From IMG/VR virus record IMGVR_UViG_3300020455_000616: DNA of 64,000 bases. One strand, written 5' to 3'. A model generated the notes under the pieces. The model saw only the letters and a program-made list of their open reading frames with translations. It ran no database searches and was not told where the DNA came from. A program made the position numbers and the translations under genes. Every line of letters begins with the position of its first letter. Position 1 is the first letter of the stretch. This DNA is from a virus. Of this stretch, positions 23,409 through 64,000 are shown in pieces.

Positions 23409-23409
23409 A

Positions 23410-29628: not shown

Positions 29629-29687
29629 AGTATGGGCATTATATGATCTAAGTATAGCATAAATATCTCTACATAACAATTCATAAA

Positions 29688-31420: not shown

Positions 31421-32153
31421 GTTTTTGTCCAAAACCTTTAGCACCTTTAGGAAGAAGATCCCAAATATACCATTCAAATATAATATTAGTTGGTGGAGAA
31501 GTCTCTATATATTCTGGGTTATGTGGTAATACATTATAAGAAGGGAGGTTTGGATATATTAATATAGAATTCTCTTTCCCAATATGTCTGTATGTTTCTT
31601 TTCCGTTTTCAATATGAGTTCCATATGCTTGATCTTTATTTTGTAAGTAAAATACTGTTCTTATAAAAGGACACTTAACTTGTTTGTCAGTAAGAACTTT
31701 AGTATTACCTCTATTTTTATATCCTGTAATCATACCAGCATCTTTATTAACTCTCCATTCTTTAAGATCATATGAATCTCCAGACTCATACATTCTTCTC
31801 CATATAGTATGCTTCCAAGTTTGAGGATCTAAACCATCAAACATAGAATAACTTAATCGTTCAGCATAGCAAGAGAACGGTATCATAGAACTAGGATTTA
31901 TACCAACCTGTTCAGCATACTCATGAATACAATCTCTTACCTTTAAAACAAATATATTCCAACACCTATCAACATAAGGAAAATAAGAACTAGGACTTAA
32001 TGCTAATCCATGACAATCAATAATGCATTGTGTAACTTGTAGTATACCATTATCTGCATCATATAAGTTCTCTTCAAAATGTCTTTCTAATTTGTCAATT
32101 AGTTCTAATCTTATACCCTCAGAGAATAGATCACTTTTATTATAAAATTCCAT
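31392..32153 (-). CDS. Divergent paralog of the 29688/30743 family
   Basis: TVFYLQNKDQAYGT...ENSILIYP; His motifs absent. Confidence 0.55.
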   Translation of the reverse strand: MEFYNKSDLFSEGIRLELIDKLERHFEENLYDADNGILQVTQCIIDCHGLALSPSSYFPYVDRCWNIFVLKVRDCIHEYAEQVGINPSSMIPFSCYAERLSYSMFDGLDPQTWKHTIWRRMYESGDSYDLKEWRVNKDAGMITGYKNRGNTKVLTDKQVKCPFIRTVFYLQNKDQAYGTHIENGKETYRHIGKENSILIYPNLPSYNVLPHNPEYIETSPPTNIIFEWYIWDLLPKGAKGFGQKLRSPDWVLP

Positions 32154-32952
32154 AATGTTTAGGAGAATATAATGGAGATGGTTTTTTAAATCGACCTGAT
32201 TTCTTGGGGCACATTGCACAAACAGTCTCTGCCTTTCTGGAGAAGAACTTCTCTATATCTCCATCAGGACTTAATGGTATGTATTTAAGATATGGTTCCC
32301 ATTTATCTGAGAGATTATACTTTTCTTTTTGTAGAGGTAGGTATGCTAAAGGAGCACACTTATATATTTTATCTCTATACAGTTGGAAGTTCTCTTGTCC
32401 TGTAGGACAATTATCCCAACTCTCTTTGAAGTCATCACTTCCTATTGGTTCAATCGTAGGACCATAACCTACATATGCCTTTAACCAATAGTCAACTGCA
32501 TCATGTATAATATATTCCACACCCCAAGATTTAATTTTATCAATACATTTATCAAATAATTTTATATAATTATCATCATCAGAATGTTTTGTAATTGTAA
32601 GAACACAATTAGTATCAGATAATGCCTTGGGAAGATCAGGATGTTTATCAATCAATAAAGCATTAGTTACCAATTCAAATAACTGATCAGATTCTATACT
32701 CCAAATCTCTTTTGTCATATAGATGATTTCTATAATATCTTTATTCAATAATGGTTCACCACCAAGCATAGATAACTCCCTCGGTCTGATCTTATCAATC
32801 CAAGGGAGATACCAAGACTTTAATTCATCTACTGTAAAATTTTCTTTATAACCATCGTTAGTAAAATGTCCACATCCCTGACAAGTAAAGTTGCAGGAAT
32901 GTGTTACGTGCCATTCTAAATGTGGTACATCAATTACCTTGAACCTTTCCAT
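32140..32952 (-). CDS. Radical SAM protein
   Basis: CNFTCQGC, LGGEPLL, TNAL; extra C-terminal Cys (CPTG, YKCA, CAMCP). Confidence 0.9.
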   Translation of the reverse strand: MERFKVIDVPHLEWHVTHSCNFTCQGCGHFTNDGYKENFTVDELKSWYLPWIDKIRPRELSMLGGEPLLNKDIIEIIYMTKEIWSIESDQLFELVTNALLIDKHPDLPKALSDTNCVLTITKHSDDDNYIKLFDKCIDKIKSWGVEYIIHDAVDYWLKAYVGYGPTIEPIGSDDFKESWDNCPTGQENFQLYRDKIYKCAPLAYLPLQKEKYNLSDKWEPYLKYIPLSPDGDIEKFFSRKAETVCAMCPKKSGRFKKPSPLYSPKHYGIL

Positions 32953-33535: not shown

Positions 33536-33744
33536 ATCACTCCAATAAGATCCTCTGCAATACACTCCATAATATTATTGTAGTCTGCATCAGGATCTTC
33601 TCCTGATAATTCTACACCTTCACTCACATAATATCTCATAACTTTTTTATATAGTTTTGGATTTTTTATATCTAAATAAATTTCTTTGTTTGCAGCAGCA
33701 CGTAGAGTGCTTAGATCTTTTTTGAATTTAGAAGTGAGTGTCAT
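33532..33744 (-). CDS. Cyanophage hypothetical protein
   Basis: MTLTSKFKKDLSTLRAAAN; start reassigned. Confidence 0.75.
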   Translation of the reverse strand: MTLTSKFKKDLSTLRAAANKEIYLDIKNPKLYKKVMRYYVSEGVELSGEDPDADYNNIMECIAEDLIGVI

Positions 33745-34740: not shown

Positions 34741-35355
34741 CTACCTCAACTTAGGACCATACATCCAAGTTACAAGAGACACTCTTCTACCTTTAGTTAC
34801 TTTCTTTACCTTATGAGGAACTCTAGAATCAAAAACTATAATAGTACCTTTTTCTTTTGGAGTATTAATTTCATTACCATGATAATCTATGAAGACTAAA
34901 TCACCACCATCATACTCACTAGGATCTGTTACTAAAACACTGGCACTTAACTTACGTGTCCAGTTCTGTTTAGTAGATGTTCCATAATCACTATGCCATC
35001 CATAGTGACCACCCTCCTGATACACAGAGATTTGAATACTCTCAAGAGTATTTAAATCGTATTGCCACGTTCTTTTATTTGCTAGATTTATATAATGTGA
35101 TATAACACTATTTGCCCAGTGATCTTCATACCACCAATTAACTTTAGAATTACGTACAGTAAGATCATTTCTTCCATACTGGTCACCACCAACACCAGCA
35201 TCCTCAAATGGAACTCTATCTTCTTCCATCTGTTTAAGTTCCTTTACCATGAGATCCACTAACTCAGGTGGAAGTTTCTCTTGCCAAAAAACTACTGGGG
35301 AATCCGCAACTACATGAGGCTCAATACTTAAACCATGCTCTCGATCACTTGCCAT
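34741..35355 (-). CDS. 2OG-Fe(II) oxygenase, PKHD/P4H type
   Basis: YGWHSD, RKLS, YDGGDL, FDSRVPHKV, RRVSLVTW. Confidence 0.92.
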   Translation of the reverse strand: MASDREHGLSIEPHVVADSPVVFWQEKLPPELVDLMVKELKQMEEDRVPFEDAGVGGDQYGRNDLTVRNSKVNWWYEDHWANSVISHYINLANKRTWQYDLNTLESIQISVYQEGGHYGWHSDYGTSTKQNWTRKLSASVLVTDPSEYDGGDLVFIDYHGNEINTPKEKGTIIVFDSRVPHKVKKVTKGRRVSLVTWMYGPKLR

Positions 35356-50800: not shown

Positions 50801-51442
50801 TTATTTATAATTAGGGAAGTTGTGAATTTTTTTAGTGTTAGTTAAACGCATTACATACTTTCTGAATGCGTCAGTACCTACTTCTCTTTTACGAGAATCA
50901 GGTTCACCAGACTGATCAGTCCATTCTACAACATCTCTAATCCAACATTTAAACATTTCAGGGTCTGCACTCTCACTAAATCCAAACTCATCATATTCTC
51001 CAGGTTCTCCAGTAAGACATATCAAATGATTAGTTCCCCTGCGAATTACCTTACCAGACTGACCTGTTACAGTATGACGAATATAAGAACCTTCTTTAAA
51101 AATAGCACCAGAGATGTAGAGTTCTCTTAACTCATCTTCTCTTTGCCTATCTCTAAGTTCAATACTTTCTTTATTTGCCTTTGCCTTTTTCCTAAAAGTT
51201 TGAGTAGCAACTGGTCGTTGGTTTGCTGTGGTTCTAACTTGCTTTGGATCTTGTGCTCCAATAACTTGGTTCTGATTATAGAACTTCAGTTTACCATTAG
51301 AACTTTTTGCAATAAACTCACCAGTCTTTTTATCATGGTATCCACCATGACCATCAGGAACTAACCCAAGTCTTCTACCTTGTAATGCAGCAATAGACTT
51401 TATCTGCCCAGCTTCTTTTAAGAATTTGGAAAAAGTTTTCAT
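50801..51442 (-). CDS. Hypothetical protein with capsid-targeting-like N-terminus
   Basis: MKTFSKFLKE; DGHGGY; GKVIRRGTNHL. Confidence 0.75.
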   Translation of the reverse strand: MKTFSKFLKEAGQIKSIAALQGRRLGLVPDGHGGYHDKKTGEFIAKSSNGKLKFYNQNQVIGAQDPKQVRTTANQRPVATQTFRKKAKANKESIELRDRQREDELRELYISGAIFKEGSYIRHTVTGQSGKVIRRGTNHLICLTGEPGEYDEFGFSESADPEMFKCWIRDVVEWTDQSGEPDSRKREVGTDAFRKYVMRLTNTKKIHNFPNYK

Positions 51443-51484
51443 AATACTAGATCTAGTTTTATCATCAATATAAGATATATTTAT

Positions 51485-52597
51485 TTATGTGTTGTTTGAA
51501 GTGCGTTCTTCAGACCCACGACGACTACTCATATACTCTTTAGTAAAGATACCACCACGGACACCTCTAGAACTACCACTTTTACCTGGTGCTTTTACAT
51601 CTGCACTAACTTTTCTATTTGCTTCTCCTTTACGAGCACCTAACGTAGGTGCATAATTACCTGTTAGATCACCTACATGATGTATACTATGCTTTGTAAA
51701 GTGAATATCTAATACATCAGAAGGACCACCACTAAAATTAATCTCACCCTGAGCAAAGACAGAACATTTATTCTTTCCTTGACTTGACTTATTACCAATT
51801 CCTTCATGACCAAAGACTGCCTTCTCCTTTAAACCTTTATCACTAATAGATCTATAAACATCATGACCTATATCATCCCAGTTATTACCAATAAGATTTC
51901 TCCAATCAACAACTTCCTTATGTTTATTAATACTAGAACCAGCATTAGCAGATATACCAGAATACTGTTGGAATGAAGTAGCACTCTCACCCTTCTTATA
52001 AGTTATGAATGCTTTCTCATCGCCTTTACTATTAACTAATATAATATCAGCATGCGATAATGATTCACCACCTATTGCTCCAATGATATCATCATAGGTT
52101 CCACTTGCTAATCTTACCTTACATGGTGCAATATCTTTTAACTTCTGATTAATCTTTGTTATTATATTAACTTCGTCTCTATTCCTAGGTGTTCTCTTTA
52201 ACTTAGGTTTACGTTTAAATACATTAAGTAATTGTTTATTCCACATTCTAGTAGTGTCAACAGATTTACCATCTGCATATTTAAAAAATATTATACATCC
52301 TACTTCATTCCTTCCTTCAGTAATATAACCAGTCACTAATAAAGACTCAAAAGTAGAACTTGCATGTTTAGTTTGTTTAACCTTTAACTTCAAGTCATTA
52401 GTCATTATAGATTTTACAAATCTCCTATTACCAGTACGATCATCACCCAATACTTTTATCTGAAGGTGTTTACCTGTATTAATATTACCAGGCATCTTCT
52501 CATATTTGACATCAAATATACCTTCGTCTTTAGAACCACTAATATTTTGTTTTAATATTTTAAAAATTCTATCTCTAGCAATAGTAGGATTTGCCAT
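51485..52597 (-). CDS. Hypothetical protein, possible PD-(D/E)xK nuclease fold
   Basis: HADIILV...ITYKK...FQQYSG. Confidence 0.45.
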   Translation of the reverse strand: MANPTIARDRIFKILKQNISGSKDEGIFDVKYEKMPGNINTGKHLQIKVLGDDRTGNRRFVKSIMTNDLKLKVKQTKHASSTFESLLVTGYITEGRNEVGCIIFFKYADGKSVDTTRMWNKQLLNVFKRKPKLKRTPRNRDEVNIITKINQKLKDIAPCKVRLASGTYDDIIGAIGGESLSHADIILVNSKGDEKAFITYKKGESATSFQQYSGISANAGSSINKHKEVVDWRNLIGNNWDDIGHDVYRSISDKGLKEKAVFGHEGIGNKSSQGKNKCSVFAQGEINFSGGPSDVLDIHFTKHSIHHVGDLTGNYAPTLGARKGEANRKVSADVKAPGKSGSSRGVRGGIFTKEYMSSRRGSEERTSNNT

Positions 52598-52617
52598 TCA
52601 TCTTCCCCCATACAAAT

Positions 52618-53076
52618 CTATTTAGAGAAGCTTAATGTAATTCTTGGATTACTTGCTATAGGGTTATGCCATGTTCCTTTATGAATACGAAGACTATCTC
52701 CAGGTTCTAGAGTTACAGTCTCTATCTCCCCAACTTCATATGGTGTTCCAATATCAAGTTCATATGTTATCGTACCATATGATTGAACAATCAAAACTTC
52801 TACAGGATCTTGATGTCTACCATAGGTTACAGACTTCTCTCCAAAAGAATAATATATGTGTAGTGTAGGTACATCATATGTCTGATTAACATAATCTCTT
52901 ACCTCACTAATAGTTCCAGGATAAAACTCACTAAAACAAATAAAAGTTGGCAATGTAGTCTCATCATACAATGCCGTTAAAGTATTATACTTATGCTCTT
53001 CACAAGTTTTTATTATAACATCTTCCCATGATACCATGTCGGATTTTGGGAATTCGTTTCTAGTTAAAGTATACAT
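52618..53076 (-). CDS. Cupin/JmjC-like oxygenase (paralog of 36957)
   Basis: YGRHQDP, LEPGDSL...WHNP, RITLSF. Confidence 0.8.
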   Translation of the reverse strand: MYTLTRNEFPKSDMVSWEDVIIKTCEEHKYNTLTALYDETTLPTFICFSEFYPGTISEVRDYVNQTYDVPTLHIYYSFGEKSVTYGRHQDPVEVLIVQSYGTITYELDIGTPYEVGEIETVTLEPGDSLRIHKGTWHNPIASNPRITLSFSK

Positions 53077-53693
53077 GTTGAATGTGATGGTACATAATCA
53101 AGACACAAAAGAGTCCTAGAAGACTTCATATTATTCTCAACCCTATGTTCTGACATAGGATGGAATATATAAAACTCTTTATTCTGCATCTTCTTAGTTT
53201 CAACTTGACCAGATTCATTCCTGATTTGAATAATAGAATCATTATCATCATCAGGATCAATATCTAATCCCCATAGTATACGTAGTAATTGTACACCAGG
53301 AATATAATCAGTATCTAAATGCCAATCTAAATTCTGACCAGCATCTAAAACATTTAAAGCACATACAGATAAGATACCAATCTCATATAAGGTATCAGCA
53401 AGGGTTGGTAATACCTCTGTGTTAGATCTGTATTCATTCTCCTCCACATATAAAGGGGCAATATGCCAACCCTTCTCACTAAAATTCCTATGCTTTGCTT
53501 TAGCATAGGAGTCATAGTTTATTGGGTATCCTCTAGAATTAGTTTCAATAAATCCTTTTTGTTCTTTAGTAAAATCCTTGAACTCCAAATAGGATTCATG
53601 ATTTTTATATTCAGTATGAATAAATTCATGCCTATCATTTAATAGAGATAGTTTAGGTTCTATATCTTGATAGTCTATGAATTTAGTCATCAT
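53064..53693 (-). CDS. Asp/Asn beta-hydroxylase-like oxygenase
   Basis: VLDAGQNLDWHLD, SEHRVEN, RTLLCLD. Confidence 0.75.
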   Translation of the reverse strand: MMTKFIDYQDIEPKLSLLNDRHEFIHTEYKNHESYLEFKDFTKEQKGFIETNSRGYPINYDSYAKAKHRNFSEKGWHIAPLYVEENEYRSNTEVLPTLADTLYEIGILSVCALNVLDAGQNLDWHLDTDYIPGVQLLRILWGLDIDPDDDNDSIIQIRNESGQVETKKMQNKEFYIFHPMSEHRVENNMKSSRTLLCLDYVPSHSTCIL

Positions 53694-53738
53694 GCATTCC
53701 CCAATCCCAGATTTTTTTTAGGAACTCTAGTATTTTTT

Positions 53739-54122
53739 TCATACCCAAACAGTAGCAGTTATTTCAAGAGACATATCATCCATCTCCCATTCCTCCTCAA
53801 CTTGGAATCCCAGTTCTTTGACAGTATTATAAACTGTCATCCTAGCATACTGTTGAGTAACCTTATCAATAAACCTATTTACAGGAACATCCAAATTCCA
53901 AGTCTCTTGATCAGCAACTAACTCATAAGTTCCTGTGTTCTTATTCAATCTAAATCCAATATCATCACTAATAGCAACATCAACATTCCACTGTTTATGT
54001 TGATGATCAAGAGGATTTTCTAATTTAGAATCCTGAATTACATCATACTGTAGGAGTTCTAATGCTTCTATAAGTTCAGGTTTATTCTTGATTTTGGTCT
54101 TGATTGTGCTGAAGTGTGACAT
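53739..54122 (-). CDS. ycf35: DUF1257/Ycf35 family protein
   Basis: MSHFSTIKTKI, IGF, YELVAD, VTQQYA, GFQVEEE. Confidence 0.85.
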   Translation of the reverse strand: MSHFSTIKTKIKNKPELIEALELLQYDVIQDSKLENPLDHQHKQWNVDVAISDDIGFRLNKNTGTYELVADQETWNLDVPVNRFIDKVTQQYARMTVYNTVKELGFQVEEEWEMDDMSLEITATVWV

Positions 54123-54306
54123 TTTTCTGTGTGTTTTGTTGATAGTATTCTGGTTTATGAACTCTATTTTCTAAAGTACCCAACTTCTTCTCAATCTCTG
54201 CAGTGAGATTCTCACAGACCTCACCAGTAAATCCTATAACTTCTTCAGTTACAGTACCGTCTTGTCTAATATTAAACTTAAGAATCTTCTTACTCATTGA
54301 AATCAT
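54082..54306 (-). CDS. DUF2997 family protein
   Basis: IRQDGTVTEEVIGFTGEVC...IEKKLG, KPEYYQ. Confidence 0.85.
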   Translation of the reverse strand: MISMSKKILKFNIRQDGTVTEEVIGFTGEVCENLTAEIEKKLGTLENRVHKPEYYQQNTQKNVTLQHNQDQNQE

Positions 54307-54713
54307 AGATCCCCTTCTTTACGATTTTCTGATTTATGTACATCAAACTCTCCACCAGGATATCTAGATTTAAGTTTGTCTACATTCATCTCAATAATTT
54401 CATTAAAGTTAGTATTTAGTGCCATGCAAGCTTGAGCAAGATACCAACAAATATCTCCCAACTCTCTCTTCATATGGAAGACATTCTCTTCACTATAAGG
54501 TTTACCTTGGAAGATAATTTTTTTAACAACTTCAGTAAACTCTCCAGACTCAGCAGATAATCCAACAGCAGCAGTAAGGAGACGTTCAATATTAGCACTT
54601 TTACCATTCAATTCTTGAAGTCTATAAATGAATGCATCAAAGTCTTGTGATGGAGAACTTGTTACACCATCTACAAATTGAGCATATCTATCAAAATCAA
54701 TTTCTTTTGTCAT
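54303..54713 (-). CDS. mazG: MazG-like NTP pyrophosphohydrolase
   Basis: GLSAESGEFTEVVKK, ELGDICWY, NVDKLKSRYP. Confidence 0.93.
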   Translation of the reverse strand: MTKEIDFDRYAQFVDGVTSSPSQDFDAFIYRLQELNGKSANIERLLTAAVGLSAESGEFTEVVKKIIFQGKPYSEENVFHMKRELGDICWYLAQACMALNTNFNEIIEMNVDKLKSRYPGGEFDVHKSENRKEGDL

Positions 54714-55936
54714 CTAGTATTACCGTAATGAATAACCTTTAAAGTATCTGAACTAAACTTCCTCCAAGGATCAACAACTATACTACCTTCTGGAATCTCA
54801 CAATATAGTTCATCACTATCTGGATTGTCCCAATATCGGTAGGTTGTCGTTGCACTATGAGCAAGTAAAAACACAGCAGGTTTGTTGCTATCATACGTGT
54901 CTCCAGTGCATTTGTCAACGTAAGATACAGAAATATTCTCTGTGTACGGTGCTGCTACTTCTTTACAAAAATGACCAACTAATAAACTATAACTTCCTTC
55001 CGTATATGATACTCTTGGTTTATATGCTTTACCATGAATTACAATAGGCATATTATTATCCCATGCAAGTTCAACTAATTTTAATGCCATGTTCCTTGCT
55101 TGCTCTTCTCTAGATAACATAATACCGTTAAAGAAATCATATCCAAGTCTTAACTTCTTTGCTAAAAATCTAAGAGCAATATTATCTCTAGGATGACAAG
55201 CACCACCATCACCCATACCTGCCTTCATATAAGAAGAATTTATAATCCTAGTTCCTGCTTTACACAAAGCACCAGTTACAACATCAACATTGATATTCCC
55301 TTGCCTCTCAGCAACATCTTGAATCATGTTAACAAAACTAATCTTATTACTAATAAAGGTATTGTAAAAAACTTTTATACATTCACATTCATCCCATGTG
55401 CCAACAATATATGGGGGATCATTCTGTGCAATAGATTTATAAAGTTGAATCAACTCTTTAGCATCACCAGTCTCAGTACCATCTTCAGTACCAATCATTA
55501 CTATCTCTGGATTTGTAAAATCAAATGCAACAGTACCCATAGCAATTAGATAAGGATTATAAACAAACCTACCCTTCATTGGTGTAAATCTTTCTCTTGT
55601 AGTACCAGGTAAAACTGTAGAGATTAAAACAATTAATTGATTATCTACGTACTTATTAACTTCATCTAATACACTCTCAACAATACTATAATTAAAATCT
55701 TTTGGTTCCAAATTCATACATGGTTGACTACCATCATACTCCTTATCATGTGGTGTAGGAACAGCAATAAAAATTATTTGAGATTTACTTACAACATCTT
55801 TAATTGAAGATTGAATGTCTACTAAAGATGTATCTCTAGGTTCAACATCATAACCAAATACAAAATGACCTGCCTTAGCAATCTCCTCAGCACAAGGCAT
55901 GCCAAGTTTACCAAGACCAATAAAACCTATATTCAT
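54710..55936 (-). CDS. UDP-glucose/GDP-mannose dehydrogenase family
   Basis: GLGKLG, IAVPTP, STVLPGT, KVFYNTF, GGACHPRD, GKAYKP. Confidence 0.9.
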   Translation of the reverse strand: MNIGFIGLGKLGMPCAEEIAKAGHFVFGYDVEPRDTSLVDIQSSIKDVVSKSQIIFIAVPTPHDKEYDGSQPCMNLEPKDFNYSIVESVLDEVNKYVDNQLIVLISTVLPGTTRERFTPMKGRFVYNPYLIAMGTVAFDFTNPEIVMIGTEDGTETGDAKELIQLYKSIAQNDPPYIVGTWDECECIKVFYNTFISNKISFVNMIQDVAERQGNINVDVVTGALCKAGTRIINSSYMKAGMGDGGACHPRDNIALRFLAKKLRLGYDFFNGIMLSREEQARNMALKLVELAWDNNMPIVIHGKAYKPRVSYTEGSYSLLVGHFCKEVAAPYTENISVSYVDKCTGDTYDSNKPAVFLLAHSATTTYRYWDNPDSDELYCEIPEGSIVVDPWRKFSSDTLKVIHYGNTR

Positions 55937-56943
55937 TCTCGCTCCAAATCAAGAGTTACACAATGGAATCCACCACTCAAAGTTCTTTGTTGTCTCATTG
56001 GTAACATTGCACATTCTATAGCATGACTCTCAAGTAACTTCCTAGTTGGTTCTTGATTCTCTTCAAGAGCAACTAAGTTTGGATTGATACTAAAAAGATT
56101 CATATTAGTCCACACTGACATATTATTATATCCATTATATGATCCAATATCAACTGCCTCTGGTGCATAGATAACATCCCATTTTTTAAATGGACCTGGC
56201 AACTGATCTTTATCTTTTAATCTAGAAGGATTTGCAAGTATAAGTCCTTCTCTCAAAAATACTAACGTAGTATCAATATGAGAGTATGAATAAACATCTC
56301 TGAGTAAATGAACATCTGCATCACATCCTGCGTCATGTAATTGTTGTTGCAATAACTCAGCACCTAATACATTACCACTATTAGATACTAAGTAGATAAT
56401 ATTATTATCTGCTCTAAGAGTATTAGCAGCATCAAATGCTGGAGTAACTTCATTCAATGCTAAGACATCTGGATTACCAATACAATCCTCATTATATAAT
56501 TCCTCAATATAAGAACAAGGTATCTCTACAGTCTCTGGTAGACAATGCTTCATTGCTCTCCAGTTACCTCTTCTAGATCTTAAAGGCATAGGAGTTGCTA
56601 AAGATAAATTCCTATGGACAAAAACACAATCTCTAGGACAGTAATTATAATATGTTGTTGGTTCTCTTTTTGGACGTACTACCTCTACACCTTCACCCTC
56701 TAAGAACTTAACAAAAACTTCTAAGTCCTCATTCGCTTCATCAATAACTTGTTCAGGAAATGCTCCAACTTTTATAGGTAGATACTCTTCATCACCATAA
56801 CCAAATAACTTCTTCTTTGGTTTAACACCAGCATAGTTAATAGTACGAGAAGACGTATCAACTGGTGGCATAACTGCATGGTCAGCAACACCAACTATAA
56901 CCTTCTTTAATTTTCCCCATTCATTAGAAGCAAGCATTGTCAT
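55933..56943 (-). CDS. Amidinotransferase (AGAT/StrB1 family)
   Basis: NEWGKLKKVIVG, CPRD, FDAAN (Asp), HIDT (His), GGFHC (Cys). Confidence 0.9.
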   Translation of the reverse strand: MTMLASNEWGKLKKVIVGVADHAVMPPVDTSSRTINYAGVKPKKKLFGYGDEEYLPIKVGAFPEQVIDEANEDLEVFVKFLEGEGVEVVRPKREPTTYYNYCPRDCVFVHRNLSLATPMPLRSRRGNWRAMKHCLPETVEIPCSYIEELYNEDCIGNPDVLALNEVTPAFDAANTLRADNNIIYLVSNSGNVLGAELLQQQLHDAGCDADVHLLRDVYSYSHIDTTLVFLREGLILANPSRLKDKDQLPGPFKKWDVIYAPEAVDIGSYNGYNNMSVWTNMNLFSINPNLVALEENQEPTRKLLESHAIECAMLPMRQQRTLSGGFHCVTLDLERE

Positions 56944-57743
56944 AACGTAGAGATTACCATTTTGTGATCATTTTCTTTTCCATAGGTAAAGAACTCATCT
57001 AAACTAAATTTTTTATGTTCCTTCGCCCACCAATGATAATAAGCATTCCTAGACTTAGTATGGTGTATTCTGTTTATTGTAACACTATTTTCTCCACTTG
57101 TCAGTTTATCGTTAGTAGTAATTAGTGGAATAGAATATGTACGACCAGTATGACCTATAAAATAATCAACTGTAGCAGCAGTATTATTAAATTTACTATC
57201 ACCTATCTTACCTAAAAATCTCCACTTATCACCAGATGAATGAAGGTCTAATATCTTCTCAACATAATCTCTTTGTAAGATAACAGGTCCAAAATAACTA
57301 TGATTTAATTTTGGATGTAAAAAGAATGGTATAAACTTTGTGGACTCAAATCCAATTTGAAGACAGTCCCAATCATAAGGAACTCTATTCATCAAATAGT
57401 CCCAATTAAAATTCCAATATTGAATAAGATTTAAATCATAATCATCTTCCATTAAACACAAGAAAGGATCAGTTGATGTACTCAACCAATCCTTCATAAA
57501 CTCTAGATGTGTAATAGCATTACCAACAACATAGACTGGAAGATTTTTACACTTACCATCTATTTTATGAGACCAATCTTTTACTTTAGATTCTGCATAC
57601 TTACTTGAAGACACCCTAGTATATTCCAACCTCCATTGTTGGAATTGATCTTCCATATAAATTCTCCTATCTTTTCTATTATCAAGATTAACGTAATAGA
57701 TATGTGGAAAATTTCTTAATCGTCCTTTATCATACTCAAGCAT
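56940..57743 (-). CDS. GT25-like glycosyltransferase, paralog 1
   Basis: YYVNL...RR, ITH, LMEDD, YDWDCLQ. Confidence 0.75.
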   Translation of the reverse strand: MLEYDKGRLRNFPHIYYVNLDNRKDRRIYMEDQFQQWRLEYTRVSSSKYAESKVKDWSHKIDGKCKNLPVYVVGNAITHLEFMKDWLSTSTDPFLCLMEDDYDLNLIQYWNFNWDYLMNRVPYDWDCLQIGFESTKFIPFFLHPKLNHSYFGPVILQRDYVEKILDLHSSGDKWRFLGKIGDSKFNNTAATVDYFIGHTGRTYSIPLITTNDKLTSGENSVTINRIHHTKSRNAYYHWWAKEHKKFSLDEFFTYGKENDHKMVISTL

Positions 57744-58554
57744 AATAATTCATGGTCTTCCTAACCATACTAATATCATTACCTTTACCATAAGTAAAGA
57801 TCTCATCTAATGAATACTTCCTAGCATCATTAGACCACCAATCATGATATGCTATTTTACATGCTCTAACCATTTTAAACTTCTTACTTTCTCTAGGATA
57901 AAACTTTGGATCACTAGGGAATAAAGGAATACAATAAGTCTTACCATTATGACCTATAAAATAATCAATCGTTCCTGACTTTAATCCAAAATTTAAATTA
58001 GCAATATTACCAGTTAAATCATACTTATCTTCTTTACAATGTAACCTAACAAGTTTTTTAACATACCTTCTATTCAGCAATGAAGGACCAAAGGTGCTTG
58101 CTGGCATTATTTGATGTAGATAAAAAGGAATATAATGTACATTCTCAAATCCAAATTGAAAGCAATCCCAATCATATGGAAGTCTTGTCATCATATACTT
58201 CCAATCAAAATCCCAATTATATTGTAGAGTAGTTGAACAAAGATCAAAGTCAACAGTATCTCTCATGATAACCAATTGATTATCATCAGTTGTGTTTAAC
58301 CAATCTTTTAAGAATTCAAGAACAGTTATAGAATAACCAGCAACACCAACAGGAAGTTTATAGTTATTCTTATTTGAAAGCAGATGCTTCCACTCACTAA
58401 CATTCTCTTGCGTATACTTAGATGTGCTTATTCTATCATAGTCAATATCTAAATTACTTAGACACCGATCCATATGTTCATTTTTAAAATCATCAGAATC
58501 TTTATTAAAATAATAGACTCTGGGAATACCAAATAACTTATCCTTTAATTCCAT
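57736..58554 (-). CDS. GT25-like paralog 2 (EDD replaced by RDT)
   Basis: LPYDWDCFQ, GTIDYFIG, IFTYGK. Confidence 0.7.
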   Translation of the reverse strand: MELKDKLFGIPRVYYFNKDSDDFKNEHMDRCLSNLDIDYDRISTSKYTQENVSEWKHLLSNKNNYKLPVGVAGYSITVLEFLKDWLNTTDDNQLVIMRDTVDFDLCSTTLQYNWDFDWKYMMTRLPYDWDCFQFGFENVHYIPFYLHQIMPASTFGPSLLNRRYVKKLVRLHCKEDKYDLTGNIANLNFGLKSGTIDYFIGHNGKTYCIPLFPSDPKFYPRESKKFKMVRACKIAYHDWWSNDARKYSLDEIFTYGKGNDISMVRKTMNYYA

Positions 58555-59515
58555 GATTGTCCATCACCGCTCCATTTTCATAGAGAAAATCTCTTCTCTC
58601 TTGTTCAGCTTTATCTAAAAAATATTTATCACTCCACTGAGAGATATCTCTCTGCATAAGAATATCAGTATCTTTACCATAAGTGAAAAATTCATCAATA
58701 GTAAAATTATCTCTATCCTGAGTCCACCACTCAACATATGCTTTATAACATTTTAAAAAACTAGGTCTTGGTTGCCAAGAACCATCACTCTTACCACCAT
58801 GATCACTGACTCCAGAGAAGTATGGAACTATAGGTATCATAGGAATAGAATAACAATTACCAGACTGTGCTATAAAATAATCAGGTGATCCTGAAGTCTG
58901 ATCATAACTCATTCCATCATGTATTCCAGAATCTCTATTCATATACACAGAGTTGGCAATAGTATAATCAAACTTATACTTACCATTAATGTAATGCAGA
59001 TCTAATAATTTCTCAGCGTAATGCCTACTCATTAAAGTTGCACCTAAAGAATACTCAGGTCTAGTTGGATGCAAATAAAATGGAACTACATCTGGAGACT
59101 CAAAACCTAACTGAATACTATCCCATCCATATGGCAATCTCTCCATCATATACTCCCAACTAAAATGCCAGAAGTCTTGAAGTCTCAACTCATAATCATC
59201 TTCCATTAAAATGATATAAGGTTCACCAGTACCTTTAGTATCCTCCAACCATTTACGTAGAAGATCTAATAATTGAGATGAATACCAATTAATTATTATA
59301 GAACTTTTATCACAATAATCTCCAACTAACTTCTTATGAAAATCATTAGGCATCTCTCTAATAGGAGGTTGTTCTATCCTAGTAAATCTAATACCTTGAA
59401 CTCTCATATTATATTCCATCCAATGCTTTCTACCAGTTTCACCCCTCACATTGGTATACAATACATGTGGCATGTGCTTTAATTTATCAGCAAAAGCAAA
59501 TTTCTTAACAGTCAT
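58538..59515 (-). CDS. GT25-like paralog 3
   Basis: LMEDDY, LPYGWDSIQ, FFTYGK. Confidence 0.72.
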   Translation of the reverse strand: MTVKKFAFADKLKHMPHVLYTNVRGETGRKHWMEYNMRVQGIRFTRIEQPPIREMPNDFHKKLVGDYCDKSSIIINWYSSQLLDLLRKWLEDTKGTGEPYIILMEDDYELRLQDFWHFSWEYMMERLPYGWDSIQLGFESPDVVPFYLHPTRPEYSLGATLMSRHYAEKLLDLHYINGKYKFDYTIANSVYMNRDSGIHDGMSYDQTSGSPDYFIAQSGNCYSIPMIPIVPYFSGVSDHGGKSDGSWQPRPSFLKCYKAYVEWWTQDRDNFTIDEFFTYGKDTDILMQRDISQWSDKYFLDKAEQERRDFLYENGAVMDNHGIKG

Positions 59516-60417
59516 TTTGTCCTGTAACGGTTTAAATATGGTTCCCCGTAAAGTTTATACATTTCACCACTTATATCATAATGCAAAAACTTGTCTGTGT
59601 CTAGTGTCATCTTAGAATCTATAGCATTTCCATAAGTAAAAAAATCATCTAAGGTAAACCTATCTCTCTCATGTGTCCACCAAAAATAATAAGCATTCCT
59701 TGCTTTCAAATCTCCACCATCACGATAATAACTTTGAATTAAACTATTATCCTCAAAACTACCAAAACTTGTATTAATTGATATTAATGGTATGCAATAT
59801 GTTCTACCAGGATGAACCATAAAATAATCTACAGTTCCAGATCCAGCAACTGCTTCACCAGAATTCCAAGCAGCATTAGCAACAGTATTTAATAATGTAT
59901 ATCTATCCCCATCACAATGAAGACTCATAAGTTTTTCAACATATTCTCTATGGATTAAAATTGGTCCAAAATCATGTGCAGATTGTATGGGATGAAGATA
60001 CATTGGCAAACCTTCTGGATTCTCAAACCCCATATGAAGACAGTCCCAATCATAGGGAAGTCTCTCCATTAAATAATCCCAATCAAAATGCCACCTTGAT
60101 ATAAGACTTAGATCATAATCATCTTCCATTAATATTAGATGTGGTTCATCAGTCTCGTTATACCACTTCTTTAAAAACTCAAGATGTGATATTGCATTAG
60201 CAGCAATAGCAGGTAACAAAGTATATTCATCAAAATCCACAATCAAATGATTCCATTCATCTATCTTAGATCCCAAATACTTTGTGCCAGATAATCTACT
60301 ATACTCAATACCAAAATTATCAAACTGTCTCTCCATATACTTCCTTCTATCTGTTCTATTATCCAGATTAAAGTAATATACCTTTGGCATACTTTTTAAT
60401 TTATTATCTAAATCCAT
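59512..60417 (-). CDS. GT25-like paralog 4
   Basis: YYFNL...RR, ISH, LMEDDY, LPYDWDC. Confidence 0.75.
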   Translation of the reverse strand: MDLDNKLKSMPKVYYFNLDNRTDRRKYMERQFDNFGIEYSRLSGTKYLGSKIDEWNHLIVDFDEYTLLPAIAANAISHLEFLKKWYNETDEPHLILMEDDYDLSLISRWHFDWDYLMERLPYDWDCLHMGFENPEGLPMYLHPIQSAHDFGPILIHREYVEKLMSLHCDGDRYTLLNTVANAAWNSGEAVAGSGTVDYFMVHPGRTYCIPLISINTSFGSFEDNSLIQSYYRDGGDLKARNAYYFWWTHERDRFTLDDFFTYGNAIDSKMTLDTDKFLHYDISGEMYKLYGEPYLNRYRTK

Positions 60418-61310
60418 AACAATATCTTTTCTCTAGTCTTATGAACATGATCTGCTCTCATATCAAATGTCACTTCCATCTCATATTCATTATCTCTACC
60501 ATAGCTGAATTGCTCATCTAAAGAATAATTACCAGCAACTTGAGACCACCAATAATCAATAGCATCTGAGGATAATTTATCTCTACATAATCTTACATCA
60601 TATTCATTATCATACTGTAAAAAATTCTCATCCAAATTAAATAAAGGCAACAAATATGTATTACCTAAATTAAACAAAGTAGTTTCAATATTACCATAAT
60701 CATTAGCAGGAATTGATTTATCTCTACATCTATAATGAAGTTTAAATTTACCATCAGGATAATGGAATCTCTTAATCTTCTTAGCAAACAATCTACTAAT
60801 CATATAACATCTAGTAGATCTATGTTCACGTTGCCAAGGATGTAAATTCATAGGAATTTTCTGACTAGCAGAATTAACAAACAATTGAATACAATCCCAA
60901 TTGTAAGGAAGTCTTTTATATGCATACTCCCAATCAAACATCCAATAATTAGACGTATGTAATCTAACAATGTCATCCATTATAATACAGACTTCATCAT
61001 CAGTATTTTCATACCAATTAACTATTGCATCATAATTATCCAGAGTTAATGCAAGTTCATTTTCAAGTAAATATGAATGATCAAAAGACCCCGTAACAAA
61101 TCTACAAGCACCATCATCAGAATAATCATCTGATAATATATCATTCCAGTTTATAGAAGATGAATCTTTAACCTGAGTAGTATATTTCTTTTCATGTCTG
61201 ATATAATCTTTTATGCCATAATGATCAAAGTGCTCAATCATTAATTGATTTTGAGCACTATCTTGTTTAGCATTTAGATATACTATTTTTGGTAATCCTT
61301 TTAACTTCAT
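60408..61310 (-). CDS. GT25-like paralog 5 (MDDI variant)
   Basis: LPKIVYLN, LPYNWDCIQ, FSYGR. Confidence 0.68.
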   Translation of the reverse strand: MKLKGLPKIVYLNAKQDSAQNQLMIEHFDHYGIKDYIRHEKKYTTQVKDSSSINWNDILSDDYSDDGACRFVTGSFDHSYLLENELALTLDNYDAIVNWYENTDDEVCIIMDDIVRLHTSNYWMFDWEYAYKRLPYNWDCIQLFVNSASQKIPMNLHPWQREHRSTRCYMISRLFAKKIKRFHYPDGKFKLHYRCRDKSIPANDYGNIETTLFNLGNTYLLPLFNLDENFLQYDNEYDVRLCRDKLSSDAIDYWWSQVAGNYSLDEQFSYGRDNEYEMEVTFDMRADHVHKTREKILLWI

Positions 61311-62179
61311 ATCTTCTTATCATACTGTGGTAGTTTTAATATCATTTCATTATGCACAGGAGAACCCCAACTTAAAATATCATCCGCATTAAATTTACTA
61401 CTCTGAGTTTCCCACCATTTTCTAGTACATGTTGTTGCCAGTATATCATAGATCTTATTATGATATTGAGCAACTACTTCATCATATACTTCTTCATCTT
61501 TATTTGCTTCTTGTCTATTATCTGGTCTAGTTGCAAGTCTTTGATTTAAAGCAAGAAGAGGTAATGTATATGACTTACCAACTTGATATATTAACCAGTC
61601 ATCACTACTATAACATTCTGGTGGAACAGTAACATCTCTTAGACTATTCTTCAATTTAAATGATCCATCTGGTTGAAGATGTAACTTCTTTAACTTCTCA
61701 ACAAAGTGTCTGTTAATAAGAATACATGCAGCAGATGAACTCTCACCAATCCTAGGTGATAAATGCATTCTTAGATAATCATTATGACAATAATATAGTT
61801 GTACTATATCCCAATCATACGGTAGATTATTATATAAAGTCTTCCAATCAAATGGCCAATGATCTATTAGATCCAATGCCAAGTCATCTTGTATTAGAAG
61901 CATATTTTCTGATATACCAGAATCATACCAATCAATAAATGTCCAGAACTCATTCATTACAATTGATGCATCAGATGGAGCAAGAAGCATCAAGTCTAAT
62001 TTTTTTCCCCACTCATTTATTTTACTAGTATGAAATCTATTAGCAGATACCCTAGTATAATCTGTGATATCCCACTTACTAAATTCATTCTCAAGGTGTG
62101 CCTTCCTCTCAGTTCTATGATCCATATTAAGATAATAGATGGGAGGTAGTCCCTTCAATTTATCATCAAACTTTGTCAT
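61307..62179 (-). CDS. GT25-like paralog 6 (QDD variant)
   Basis: LPPIYYLN...R, IQDD, LPYDWDIVQ. Confidence 0.72.
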   Translation of the reverse strand: MTKFDDKLKGLPPIYYLNMDHRTERKAHLENEFSKWDITDYTRVSANRFHTSKINEWGKKLDLMLLAPSDASIVMNEFWTFIDWYDSGISENMLLIQDDLALDLIDHWPFDWKTLYNNLPYDWDIVQLYYCHNDYLRMHLSPRIGESSSAACILINRHFVEKLKKLHLQPDGSFKLKNSLRDVTVPPECYSSDDWLIYQVGKSYTLPLLALNQRLATRPDNRQEANKDEEVYDEVVAQYHNKIYDILATTCTRKWWETQSSKFNADDILSWGSPVHNEMILKLPQYDKKI

Positions 62180-62804
62180 GTTTAAATACTGTCAAACTTG
62201 GTAGATAAGGATAATCTAAAGAACACCATTTTAGAGTTGGTGCGTTTACTGCTGTTTGAAATTTTTCTAATCCCTCAGAAGCCTTCTCTGGTGTCATATA
62301 ATAATGATAACCCATAACATCTATATCTTGATCTCTCCAAGGTCTATAAAAATCCCTACCATCACATGACATCTTCTTTAGATAATAATGTGCTGTGGGA
62401 TTATCAGTAAGAATCATACCACCACGTCCTAATGATAAATGTTTTCTTTGTTGAAAACTTAAACAAAAATATGTATTAGGAATATAAGAATCCTTCTTCC
62501 AATAAACAGCAGCATCAATTATATTTGTCTCTTTAATATAATAAAAATCACTCCAAGTAGAATCATCCCACTTCCATTCAATACCACCTATCTTCTTCAT
62601 TATCAAAGGTACTGATAAGTAAGTATGAGTAGGAATAACAGCACGATCAAACCTCTCATATCTCATACACAATTCTATAGCATGAGTACATGAGTCAACT
62701 GCTATCGCATAAGGAGCACCATAAAAATTAGCAATAGTTTGTTCAAACTGATATACTGCTGAATCTCTTTCTACTTGATCATTCTGCGGAATTGTATAAC
62801 TCAT
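62166..62804 (-). CDS. Short DegT/DnrJ/EryC1/StrS PLP aminotransferase
   Basis: FEQ...AVDSCTHA, IDAA, SFQQRK (PLP Lys), GGMILTD, GYHY. Confidence 0.82.
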   Translation of the reverse strand: MSYTIPQNDQVERDSAVYQFEQTIANFYGAPYAIAVDSCTHAIELCMRYERFDRAVIPTHTYLSVPLIMKKIGGIEWKWDDSTWSDFYYIKETNIIDAAVYWKKDSYIPNTYFCLSFQQRKHLSLGRGGMILTDNPTAHYYLKKMSCDGRDFYRPWRDQDIDVMGYHYYMTPEKASEGLEKFQTAVNAPTLKWCSLDYPYLPSLTVFKHDKV

Positions 62805-63501
62805 AATCTAAAGAATAAAATTTATTAAAAGCATCCATGTCAGGTTCAATGTATCTATGGAATACCTTCTTAGCTAACATAGTACAATTTGGCACAAAAT
62901 ATTTAGAGTCTCTTAAATGACCTATATCTAGATCCTTATGTTGCCTACCTTTAAAACTTTTCAAAAAATTATTAACCTTTTCATTTAAATGATTATCTAA
63001 TTTTAATAACTTTATATTACCATTATAGTCTGTACATAGTCTTAAAAATAAATGCTGCGGAGCAGTATGCTCATCAAATACATACTTCTTATTTTGAACT
63101 TGTTTGATTACCCATTCAGTAGGTGCTTTATATCTACACATAAATTCATTAAGTCCAGAAATCCATCTACTAATAGGATCTCTAGACATTGAAAAAAATG
63201 TATATCCACTATCAACTAAAAAGTTTGCCATGTGGTCATAATCATTTGCTTTAGGAAACTTCTCAAGAGGAATAAAACTTTCTCCCTCCATTTTAAATGC
63301 TGATGTTATTGATGTACTACCACACTTATCAACATGCAAGTAAACTAATTGTCTTCTAACATCTAGATAACAATTAATAAAACCATCTCTATGAATTGCT
63401 TGATCTGGCAACCCCTTATGTAATTTAAAAGTAAAGGTAGAACAGTACTCAGGATACTCATCAACCAAATAATCAATAACAGCTTTTCTTAATTTAACCA
63501 T
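62779..63501 (-). CDS. Sulfotransferase family 2 (CHST-like)
   Basis: HVDKCGSTS (5'-PSB), RDPISRWISG (3'-PB), EHTAPQ. Confidence 0.78.
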   Translation of the reverse strand: MVKLRKAVIDYLVDEYPEYCSTFTFKLHKGLPDQAIHRDGFINCYLDVRRQLVYLHVDKCGSTSITSAFKMEGESFIPLEKFPKANDYDHMANFLVDSGYTFFSMSRDPISRWISGLNEFMCRYKAPTEWVIKQVQNKKYVFDEHTAPQHLFLRLCTDYNGNIKLLKLDNHLNEKVNNFLKSFKGRQHKDLDIGHLRDSKYFVPNCTMLAKKVFHRYIEPDMDAFNKFYSLDYELYNSAE

Positions 63502-63842
63502 GGCTTAGGTACAGTCGGCATCTTCTTAACTGTATCTTGAATCAAAGGTAACATATCATTTTCAACTCTCTCTGCAATCTTATCAATAACATTAACATCT
63601 ATATCCATAAACGGTGGAATGATTCCTAAAATTCTTAATAAACCATCTACAAATAATGCTAATGCTGTAAACCCAAGTATCATACTAATAATAGTGGCAT
63701 CACGATTATGTTTTGCCATTGAAGCTTCATCAATTGCTTTTGCTTCGTCCACGGCAGACTTAATTAGGAGATCTACTTCTTTCTTTGTATAAAATCCACC
63801 TATTCCAGGTATGTCGTGTATGTCATATCTTCTTGGACTCAT
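63489..63842 (-). CDS. Cyanophage membrane protein
   Basis: HNRDATIISMILGFTALALFVDGLLRILGIIPPF; GGAGG SD. Confidence 0.8.
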   Translation of the reverse strand: MSPRRYDIHDIPGIGGFYTKKEVDLLIKSAVDEAKAIDEASMAKHNRDATIISMILGFTALALFVDGLLRILGIIPPFMDIDVNVIDKIAERVENDMLPLIQDTVKKMPTVPKPWLN

Positions 63843-63851
63843 AAACCTCCT

Positions 63852-64000
63852 TTAGTATATTGGTGTAAGAGGATTCGTTGGGTGGTATAAAGCGTCCTCT
63901 CTTTCCCAAGAATCTATCATGTCGGGAATTTCTGATCTTGGCACATACATTGGATGATCATAAGGATCAGGTCCAATTAACTCAAAGCGAACAGCATCCA
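63852..64000 (-). CDS. Hypothetical protein, 3' end (truncated by window)
   Basis: Open frame ...DAVRFELIGPDPYDHPMYVPRSEIPDMIDSW...TPIY*. Confidence 0.6.
   Translation of the reverse strand, partial: DAVRFELIGPDPYDHPMYVPRSEIPDMIDSWEREDALYHPTNPLTPIY

Follow-up and report, generated by a model that had tools for sequence, protein, structure and literature searches.

We describe a block of ten genes at positions 54710-63501 on the minus strand of a 64,000-nt viral DNA stretch (IMG/VR virus record IMGVR_UViG_3300020455_000616; hereafter the window). We read it as a conserved auxiliary operon of uncultured T4-like cyanophages, whose products would make a guanidino sugar and build it into a short sulfated glycan, and we give this reading a probability of roughly 0.55. 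What we observe directly is which families the encoded enzymes belong to, that their catalytic motifs are intact, and that the genes are conserved and occur together; judged from its sequence, the operon is real, conserved and apparently functional.

The window comes from a T4-like cyanomyovirus, its first 25 kb matching the Prochlorococcus and Synechococcus myoviruses P-SSM7, P-HM1/2 and MED4-213 at 80-87%, in pieces. The minus strand of the block holds exactly 10 open reading frames (ORFs; 408, 336, 267, 272, 325, 301, 300, 290, 212 and 240 aa), with overlaps of 4-26 nt at each junction, including those with mazG on one side and with the gene of a 117-aa membrane protein on the other (Table 1). 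This island has a G+C content of 32.0%, compared with 37.2% in the remainder of the window, and just 2 of 277 equal-length windows are as low. When the island was compared by megablast with 50,697 phage records, no near-identical isolate was found and mazG alone matched by nucleotide in the 54-64 kb stretch. All ten proteins look soluble when their sequences are inspected by eye. A first-pass annotation, made from the sequence alone, had described ten co-oriented, overlapping, AT-rich genes next to mazG, and these points were borne out: the island is the most AT-rich stretch of the window and the flanking gene matches annotated mazG genes. The order in which the genes had been listed is the reverse of transcription, which runs from the sulfotransferase as the first gene to the dehydrogenase as the last. 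The ten-gene block was correctly delimited, but the system is larger, with a cupin gene past the window end and a possible radical S-adenosylmethionine (radical SAM) partner at 32140-32952. The five enzyme families that had been named are all present, except that the transferases are GT25-like below the Pfam cut-off and the DegT enzyme is a miniature.

Relatives of the L-arginine amidinotransferase (AmT) of the operon were found in 189 IMG/VR contigs, and the ten operon proteins were compared with the best 80 of these 189 loci and with the phage S-SCSM2R, giving 81 loci. A complete ORF for the miniature DegT-family aminotransferase (mini-DegT) is present in 74 of them, and five of the other seven are truncated contigs. 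Three architectures share this mini-DegT/AmT core. Type A (30 loci, 50-70% identity) consists of the cupin, the sulfotransferase, mini-DegT, five to six glycosyltransferases (GTs), AmT, the dehydrogenase and then mazG; the island always lies between the gp41 helicase gene and mazG, which adjoins the cluster and is the conserved anchor of the insertion site. Type B, seen in about 40 loci and in the isolate S-SCSM2R, combines GTs, mini-DegT, often a radical SAM gene, a small cupin oxygenase, AmT, a GT and a NodU/TobZ-type carbamoyltransferase. Type C (5 loci) contains three radical SAM genes, a methyltransferase, the dehydrogenase, mini-DegT and AmT, without GT25-like genes. The same cluster as type C lies on the chromosome of a cultured isolate, Bdellovibrio sp. 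HCB2-146 (NZ_JBLEQP010000001.1, 1856429-1876899), in the order twitch-radical-SAM, dehydrogenase, short-chain dehydrogenase/reductase (SDR) and mini-DegT, with AmT nearby; it also includes three N_Twi_rSAM genes, a PP-loop ATPase and a 468-aa protein common to the type-C viral contigs. Whether the genes co-occur elsewhere had been set beforehand as a refutation test, and they do so in dozens of viral contigs and one bacterial chromosome. The proposed coupling of AmT to an aminotransferase is likewise kept across the three gene architectures.

The character of AmT points to the chemistry. Its full-length match to StrB1 (E 8e-53) is far ahead of those to SxtG, HsvA and AGAT (E 1e-22 to 1e-27; AGAT about 1e-24), and searches of Pfam-A and NCBIfam gave no match at E <=0.01. 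The motifs CPRD, FDAAN and HID are present in 61 of 61 distinct homologues and FHC in 60 of 61. In the window protein, the catalytic Cys-His-Asp motifs (C-terminal G-x-F-H-C, HID and FDAAN) align with those of StrB1, an inosamine-phosphate amidinotransferase, whose substrate is an aminocyclitol. AmT belongs to the StrB1 (streptidine) type and not to the glycine type, as the first-pass annotation had proposed. It could instead be an independent metabolic gene, standing among the glycan genes and serving to make guanidinoacetate, homoarginine or another small guanidino compound, or to release ornithine from host arginine. The superfamily does include AGAT, AmtA and CyrA, which act on amino acids, and S-SCSM2R has a second 'glycine amidinotransferase', a distant one, that turned up in the proteome of its CsCl-purified virion preparation (PMC12801897). 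We nevertheless consider an independent role very improbable, since AmT overlaps each neighbouring gene by 4 nt and is translationally coupled to both, stays beside or near mini-DegT in three architectures and in bacteria, and resembles StrB1 far more closely than AGAT. Two further comparisons were set aside: the queuosine-type 'amidinotransferases' of phage DNA-modification papers are unrelated enzymes, and a creatine-related auxiliary metabolic gene (AMG) reading was rejected because the ocean AMG catalogue concerns GAMT, not the AmT gene.

Mini-DegT would be the enzyme that prepares the amine for AmT. All 27 aligned homologues are 194-227 aa long, and D97, S116-F117-Q and K121 are invariant; by alignment, K121 is the Schiff-base lysine of the motif S-F-x-x-x-K and D97 the aspartate facing N1 of pyridoxal 5'-phosphate (PLP). 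An AlphaFold (AF2) model with a mean predicted local distance difference test score (pLDDT) of 91 shows seven strands, and its top Foldseek matches are all sugar aminotransferases, namely GDP-perosamine synthase, ArnB, WbpE and BtrR, with query-normalised TM-scores (TMq) of 0.61-0.70 and target-normalised scores of just 0.32-0.41. The family profile spans only residues ~35-100 and ~168-255 of 370-aa enzymes. Relative to the canonical protein, about 40% is lost, comprising the C-terminal domain and a portion of the large one, and mini-DegT does not have the two-domain, ~360-400-aa architecture of canonical DegT enzymes. Given its length of 212 aa, the partial profile coverage and the low target-normalised TM-scores, we regard mini-DegT as a miniature sister form and not as a canonical member. 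Metagenomes contain at least 8000 clusters of such proteins, about 196 aa in length.

Loci without AmT are informative about the product of mini-DegT. An N-acyltransferase-type gene, of the hexapeptide or 'pilin glycosylation' kind, stands beside mini-DegT or one gene off in a Marinimicrobia metagenome-assembled genome and in Flavobacterium phage immuto. The simplest reading of an acyltransferase in the place of AmT is that mini-DegT makes an amine, to which an acyl or amidino group is then added as a cap. The dehydrogenase, a member of the UGDH family, is also paired with mini-DegT in the Marinimicrobia genome, and in an uncultured 642-kb phage (LR756502) a homologue lies 4 kb from mini-DegT. 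In phage immuto (NC_055915), mini-DegT is part of a glycan cluster that also includes several GTs, an acetyltransferase-like gene and an aminotransferase of full length. Mini-DegT genes of 54-58% identity, without AmT or GT25-like genes, were also seen in the Prochlorococcus single-cell assemblies AG-402-I21, AG-402-M18 and AG-363-M17; these contigs are probably phage DNA from infected cells and hint at the natural host.

The dehydrogenase at the end of the operon would act on the nucleotide sugar, and its N-terminal NAD domain and central domain both pass their Pfam cut-offs (Table 1). Its catalytic cysteine, in the motif GG(A/S)C(H/L)P(R/K)D (GGACHPRD in the window), and the K...N residues are kept in 35 of 35 homologues, and UGDH entries of the PDB match at up to E 6e-19. 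Its TIGR03026 score of 142 bits does not reach the 189.8 required, and for every equivalog model its score stays far under the cut-off. No family model in Pfam or NCBIfam names its substrate, and the Pfam scan did not detect the C-terminal UDP-binding domain PF03720.

For the ketone that would have to be formed ahead of transamination, the upstream cupin is a candidate. In one compared locus (L013), the gene directly upstream of the sulfotransferase is an orthologue of 59% identity, and in type B a homologue stands between mini-DegT and AmT; because of these conserved positions in types A and B, we count it as part of the system. In the ESM Atlas it matches virus-only hypothetical clusters alone. 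The cupin could supply the missing ketone-forming step or a guanidine-modifying one. The window also encodes a short radical SAM protein, which is 39% identical (E 2e-68) to ORF306 of S-SCSM2R, the neighbour of mini-DegT in that phage. Its homologues are inside the module in 8 loci, 22-25 kb away in 3 of 3 type-A records tested, and absent from two type-B fragments examined; it is thus a possible distal partner of the operon. In the window (neighbourhood 31392-33565), it is flanked by a 2-oxoglutarate (2OG)-Fe(II) oxygenase (2OG-FeII_Oxy_3, 32930-33565) and a 275-aa protein, and a further 2OG-FeII_Oxy_3 gene was seen at 34741-35355. For radical SAM chemistry at this step there are precedents: BtrN acts on an aminocyclitol alcohol ahead of the DegT-family transaminase BtrR, and BlsE acts on a glucuronide (PMC3715490). 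The window protein shows only generic similarity (CteB, MoaA), belongs to no curated radical SAM family and, unlike the bacterial partners, is not a member of NF033640. It was therefore not adopted as a BtrN- or BlsE-like ketone maker, a role that stays a guess. The GDP-mannose 4,6-dehydratase gene of the window (GMD, 28627-29679) was considered as a source of the keto sugar because GDP-perosamine synthase is a top structural match of mini-DegT. It was rejected as an obligatory partner, being present in the complete type-A genome G001 and absent from the complete genome of S-SCSM2R, which has the DegT/AmT pair.

The six transferases form a divergent sister group of GT25. None reaches the cut-off of Pfam PF01755 (24 bits), two scoring 18.4 and 19.8 bits and four giving no match; a bona fide GT25 that the window encodes at 21107-21898 reaches 49 bits. 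The AF2 model of paralogue 4 (pLDDT 94.6) has a GT-A fold, with Mimivirus R655, human COLGALT1 and a bacterial beta-1,4-galactosyltransferase as its top Foldseek matches (probability 1.00, TMq 0.38-0.48), and a profile of the family finds R655 in the PDB at E 1e-4. The group carries a private C-terminal signature, WW..(F/Y)(S/T)L(D/E)(D/E)FFTYGK.ND, and a relative of paralogue 4 occurs in 98 phage records. In a tree of 81 representatives the paralogues fall into six orthogroups, whose order is preserved across type-A phages. The acidic E-D-D (DxD-type) motif after the fourth strand is canonical in paralogues 1, 3 and 4 and changed in 2, 5 and 6, each variant being specific to its orthogroup. 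The form (R/K)D(T/I)x(D)F is conserved throughout the orthogroup of paralogue 2, as is QDDL within that of paralogue 6; the orthogroup of paralogue 5 has long branches and a motif, M(E/D)Dx(V/I), that varies within the group. Orthologues of paralogue 1 are 56-69% identical, and the orthogroup of paralogue 3 is fast-evolving within the clade of the window phage. Acidic motifs specific to ordered orthogroups mark an old functional divergence and not recent duplication or decay. The six paralogues fit an assembly line of different linkages, in which some members could be non-catalytic partners.

The sulfotransferase retains both motifs for binding 3'-phosphoadenosine 5'-phosphosulfate (PAPS), the 5'-phosphosulfate-binding motif (5'-PSB) KC(G/A)STS and the 3'-phosphate-binding motif (3'-PB) (S/T)R(D/E)P..RW(I/V)S, in 25 of 25 distinct homologues, the window protein carrying KCGSTS and SRDPISRWIS. 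Its orthologues in type-A loci are 37-56% identical, and a sequence search of the PDB gave no match.

From these parts we infer an order of steps, their substrates and a single product shared by all the enzymes. In the cytoplasm of the infected cell, with the genes expressed alongside the surrounding replication genes, the UGDH-family enzyme would convert a nucleoside diphosphate (NDP)-hexose to the NDP-uronic acid. A ketone would then be put on the sugar by the upstream cupin/2OG-type oxygenase, the distal radical SAM protein or a host enzyme. Mini-DegT would transaminate the ketone to an amine, and AmT would shift the amidino group of L-arginine onto it, giving a guanidino sugar. The six anciently diverged, GT25-like GT-A enzymes would add sugars successively to give a short hetero-oligosaccharide, which the sulfotransferase would sulfate from PAPS. 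That the product would be zwitterionic, as the first-pass annotation had inferred, and would bear the uronic acid and the guanidino group on one glycan is conjectural. A more specific version can be put forward only tentatively, as it seems to us rather less likely than not to hold in full: marine T4-like cyanophages, and other phages and bacteria with the trio of dehydrogenase, AmT and mini-DegT, would make a new NDP-guanidino (deoxy)hexuronic-type sugar through a new miniature class of PLP aminotransferase, and the phage would install it in a sulfated glycan of hexasaccharide scale on the envelope of the infected cell or on its own virion.

Several observations weigh against this pathway. 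The operon encodes no keto-sugar-forming enzyme (4,6-dehydratase, SDR or GFO oxidoreductase), and the GMD of the window sits 25 kb away. It also contains no flippase, polymerase, initiating transferase or obvious acceptor gene. The type-B cluster has no UGDH gene, and S-SCSM2R has just a 32% relative elsewhere. Mini-DegT lacks the domain that normally helps to close the active site, among the roughly 40% that is gone, and so may not use an NDP-sugar. With all the transferases under the GT25 cut-off and three of the six bearing a non-canonical acidic motif, some may be non-catalytic. Finally, the expression timing is read solely from gene position.

What the glycan would be attached to is a separate question. 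GT25 enzymes extend the lipooligosaccharide (LOS) cores of bacteria and galactosylate collagen hydroxylysine. We place a host envelope glycolipid or glycoconjugate with an LOS-like core slightly ahead of a protein, and free metabolites and DNA well behind; the envelope is a little short of an even bet, a phage or host protein is distinctly less likely than that, a free small molecule or an acceptor of some other kind is improbable, and DNA is the least probable of all.

The alternative of protein glycosylation departs from the envelope-glycan reading only in the acceptor. As in giant viruses, oxygenases would hydroxylate a virion or host protein and the GT25-like enzymes would O-glycosylate it, giving the virion a charged glycan coat. 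Phage-encoded GTs glycosylate the virions of mycobacteriophages, and virus-encoded GTs those of chloroviruses. The structures closest to paralogue 4 are R655 and COLGALT1, and R655 has been proposed as a collagen-modifying enzyme (PMC9546862). Protein-hydroxylase-like genes also flank the operon: an Asp_Arg_Hydrox gene (53064-53693, 209 aa, 39 bits) and a JmjC_2/cupin gene (52618-53076, 152 aa), both on the minus strand just downstream of mazG, and the upstream cupin, with a 2OG-FeII_Oxy_5 gene between UGDH and mazG in L013. This adjacency is weak evidence, since 2OG oxygenases are scattered over cyanophage genomes. Bacterial GT25 enzymes work on LOS, and the genes lie in a replication block without a late-promoter motif, the T4-type motif TATAAATA having no occurrence in 50810-64000. 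No collagen-like G-X-Y run is present in the window ORFs of at least 90 aa, and a collagen-like acceptor was rejected on this account. We therefore hold a glycosylated protein coat to be unlikely, while the most serious of the alternatives.

A free aminoglycoside- or pseudo-oligosaccharide-like metabolite, an 'antibiotic' acting on competitors or on host physiology, would explain the streptidine/2-deoxystreptamine logic of a StsC/BtrR-type aminotransferase with a StrB1-type partner. Type B adds a NodU/TobZ-type carbamoyltransferase and a radical SAM protein, and the authors of S-SCSM2R gave three of its genes the label 'antibiotic synthesis genes' (PMC12801897). The trio, though, begins with an NDP-sugar dehydrogenase and not an inositol dehydrogenase, cyclitol synthase, exporter and resistance genes are all missing, and a lytic phage has just minutes to hours in which to benefit. 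Six GT-A enzymes of GT25-like type are typical of LOS or protein glycosylation, whereas aminoglycoside pathways use GT-B enzymes. We regard a free metabolite as quite improbable.

The genomic setting raises DNA as a further target. Beyond the window end, sequence was read on the IMG/VR contig L002, which is 100% identical to the window, and there uvsX, the gp41 helicase gene, the 166-aa cupin gene, a 121-aa ORF and the membrane gene lie upstream of the operon. The operon is thus placed between uvsX/gp41 and mazG, among replication and nucleotide genes, which speaks for a reading in which its enzymes would hypermodify the phage DNA with a charged sugar to escape restriction. T-even phages glycosylate hydroxymethylcytosine with early enzymes. 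DNA glucosylation was raised as a possibility by the authors of S-SCSM2R (PMC12801897), and DNA was the less likely option of the first-pass annotation. A gene of the ThyA/dCMP-/dUMP-hydroxymethylase family (PF00303) was not found in the two complete carriers, G001 and S-SCSM2R, which argues against sugar-modified hydroxymethyl bases, and a chain of six transferases with a sulfotransferase is out of scale for base modification. To our knowledge, the known DNA glucosyltransferases are GT-B enzymes and not GT25-like. DNA is accordingly disfavoured, and we give it very little weight.

Table 1. Operon genes, flanking genes and related features in window numbering.
Feature	Position	Strand	Evidence and remarks
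mazG pyrophosphatase	54303..54713	-	matches annotated mazG of P-SSM7 and S-SSM5; downstream boundary
NDP-sugar 6-dehydrogenase (UGDH/GMD family)	54710..55936	-	Pfam PF03721 61 bits, PF00984 55 bits, above cut-offs
StrB1-type L-arginine amidinotransferase (AmT)	55933..56943	-	PDB 1bwd, E 8e-53, residues 5-335 of 336
GT25-like paralogue 1, canonical MEDDYDL	56940..57743	-	phrog_2835 E 5e-45; Pfam GT25 18.4 bits, under cut-off
GT25-like paralogue 2, altered RDTVDF	57736..58554	-	phrog_2835 E 1e-24
GT25-like paralogue 3, MEDDYEL, long insertion and C-terminal tail	58538..59515	-	phrog_2835 E 1e-23
GT25-like paralogue 4, canonical MEDDYDL	59512..60417	-	phrog_2835 E 2e-41; Pfam GT25 19.8 bits
GT25-like paralogue 5, MDDIV, most divergent	60408..61310	-	phrog_2835 E 2e-30
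GT25-like paralogue 6, QDDL	61307..62179	-	phrog_2835 E 4e-33; own orthogroup in tree
mini-DegT, 212-aa PLP sugar-aminotransferase-like	62166..62804	-	Pfam PF01041 62 bits (cut-off 19.8), two separated profile pieces
Sulfotransferase, Sulfotransfer_2 family	62779..63501	-	Pfam PF03567 32.9 bits, cut-off 22
117-aa single-pass membrane protein	63489..63842	-	overlaps sulfotransferase start by 13 nt
166-aa cupin, HxD...H motif	about 64144-64644, past window end (L002:2300-2800)		weak Asp_Arg_Hydrox match
Short radical SAM, 270 aa, extra C-terminal cysteines	32140..32952	-	Pfam Radical_SAM 38 bits
Second-island genes	21107-29679	-	bona fide GT25 (49 bits), weak GT4-like, two uncharacterised, HAD-phosphatase/sugar-nucleotidyltransferase fusion (457 aa), DUF7796, GT6, GT11 (fucosyltransferase family), GDP-fucose-synthase-like SDR, GDP-mannose 4,6-dehydratase

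The 117-aa membrane protein is probably not a core part of the system, its homologues among the compared loci being restricted to the closest relatives (L002-L010). The strongest terminator-like site of the region, a 14-pair hairpin with a T-rich run, lies at 57463-57495 on the minus strand within the coding sequence of GT paralogue 1. The window also carries a second glycan island of ten overlapping genes, whose combination of GT11, GT6 and GDP-fucose supply is reminiscent of the enzymes that make a histo-blood-group-like fucosylated epitope. The two islands jointly occupy about 17 kb of the phage.

Cyanomyoviruses kill a large share of ocean Prochlorococcus and Synechococcus, and their 'LPS gene' (lipopolysaccharide) islands have been without explanation since 2005. 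For these the operon offers a concrete chemical hypothesis, a cationic guanidino sugar in a sulfated glycan, and it involves a new miniature family of sugar aminotransferases that is very abundant in metagenomes. If the reading is true, the product would be the first guanidino-glycan from any virus and a new sugar for glycobiology and, given the number of mini-DegT clusters, could be an abundant carbohydrate modification of the surface ocean. A glycan that altered the cell surface or the virion would bear on superinfection exclusion, host range and grazing. Because a cultured phage, S-SCSM2R, and a Bdellovibrio isolate carry versions of the module, the hypothesis is testable in the laboratory, the latter being a genetically tractable place in which to find the product.

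Among known systems, a close chemical parallel is the streptidine branch of Streptomyces griseus (StsC and StrB1, PDB 1bwd), in which an alcohol is oxidised, transaminated by a DegT-family enzyme and amidinated from L-arginine. Over its whole length the phage AmT can be aligned with StrB1, and it retains the Asp/His/Cys catalytic motifs. The phage pathway differs in that it would start with an NDP-sugar 6-dehydrogenase and not an inositol dehydrogenase, and lacks the kinase and phosphatase of phosphorylated cyclitols; its aminotransferase is a 200-aa miniature, and the module is phage-borne and joined to six GT-A transferases and a sulfotransferase. A second parallel is found in Ugd/ArnA/ArnB, which make UDP-4-amino-4-deoxy-L-arabinose for lipid A, and in WbpA/WbpB/WbpE, which make 3-amino uronic acids. 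In both, a UGDH-family enzyme and a keto step come before a DegT-family aminotransferase. These aminotransferases, ArnB and WbpE, rank among the top structural matches of mini-DegT, and the UGDH-SDR-mini-DegT genes of Bdellovibrio HCB2-146 follow the Ugd/ArnA/ArnB order. In contrast, the cyanophage operon has no SDR or GFO oxidoreductase, its amine would be amidinated and not left free, formylated or acetylated, and a lipid A target is not assumed.

With the 'LPS / cell-wall modification' islands of T4-like cyanophages (P-SSM2, S-SCSM1 and S-SCSM2R) and the single-copy GT25-like gene phrog_2835, the operon shares the phage lineage, the position in a hypervariable island and the GT25-like family. 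S-SCSM2R comes closest, with GTs, mini-DegT, a radical SAM gene, an oxygenase, AmT and a GT in one block, whereas the other isolates lack AmT and mini-DegT; no phage isolate searched had the type-A form, in which UGDH and a sulfotransferase accompany the six ordered paralogues. The 2025 description of S-SCSM2R treats mini-DegT, the radical SAM gene and AmT as 'antibiotic synthesis genes' unseen before in cyanophages and lists the adjacent GTs separately (PMC12801897), a label of three genes that our reading corrects. The Campylobacter phages CP220 and CPt10 are also T4-like and carry an AmT of the same superfamily beside GT-A-fold proteins, as part of an interchangeable module of radical SAM and 'glycine amidinotransferase' genes (Timms et al., 2010; PMC2853527). 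We confirmed this module in CP220, with two GT-A-fold genes and a PAP2 phosphatase alongside. The AmTs are just ~23% identical, CP220 has five radical SAM genes, and an aminotransferase, an NDP-sugar dehydrogenase and a sulfotransferase are not annotated in the stretch inspected.

Giant viruses, such as Mimivirus (R655, R699, L230 and the aminotransferase L136) and the chlorovirus PBCV-1 (A64R), likewise encode nucleotide-sugar tailoring enzymes with GT-A transferases, and the phage GT family finds its best PDB match in R655. They differ in being viruses of eukaryotes whose targets are virion fibrils or the capsid, and we know of no amidinotransferase or sulfotransferase in their glycosylation systems. 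The literature searched gave no account of the operon genes as one glycan pathway and none of a viral guanidino sugar; the statement that no phage pathway of this kind has been characterised thus holds, although parts of it had been annotated in CP220 (2010) and S-SCSM2R (2025). Phage glycan-biosynthesis islands are known, and the operon described here, uncharacterised as a whole module, is a new form within that kind.

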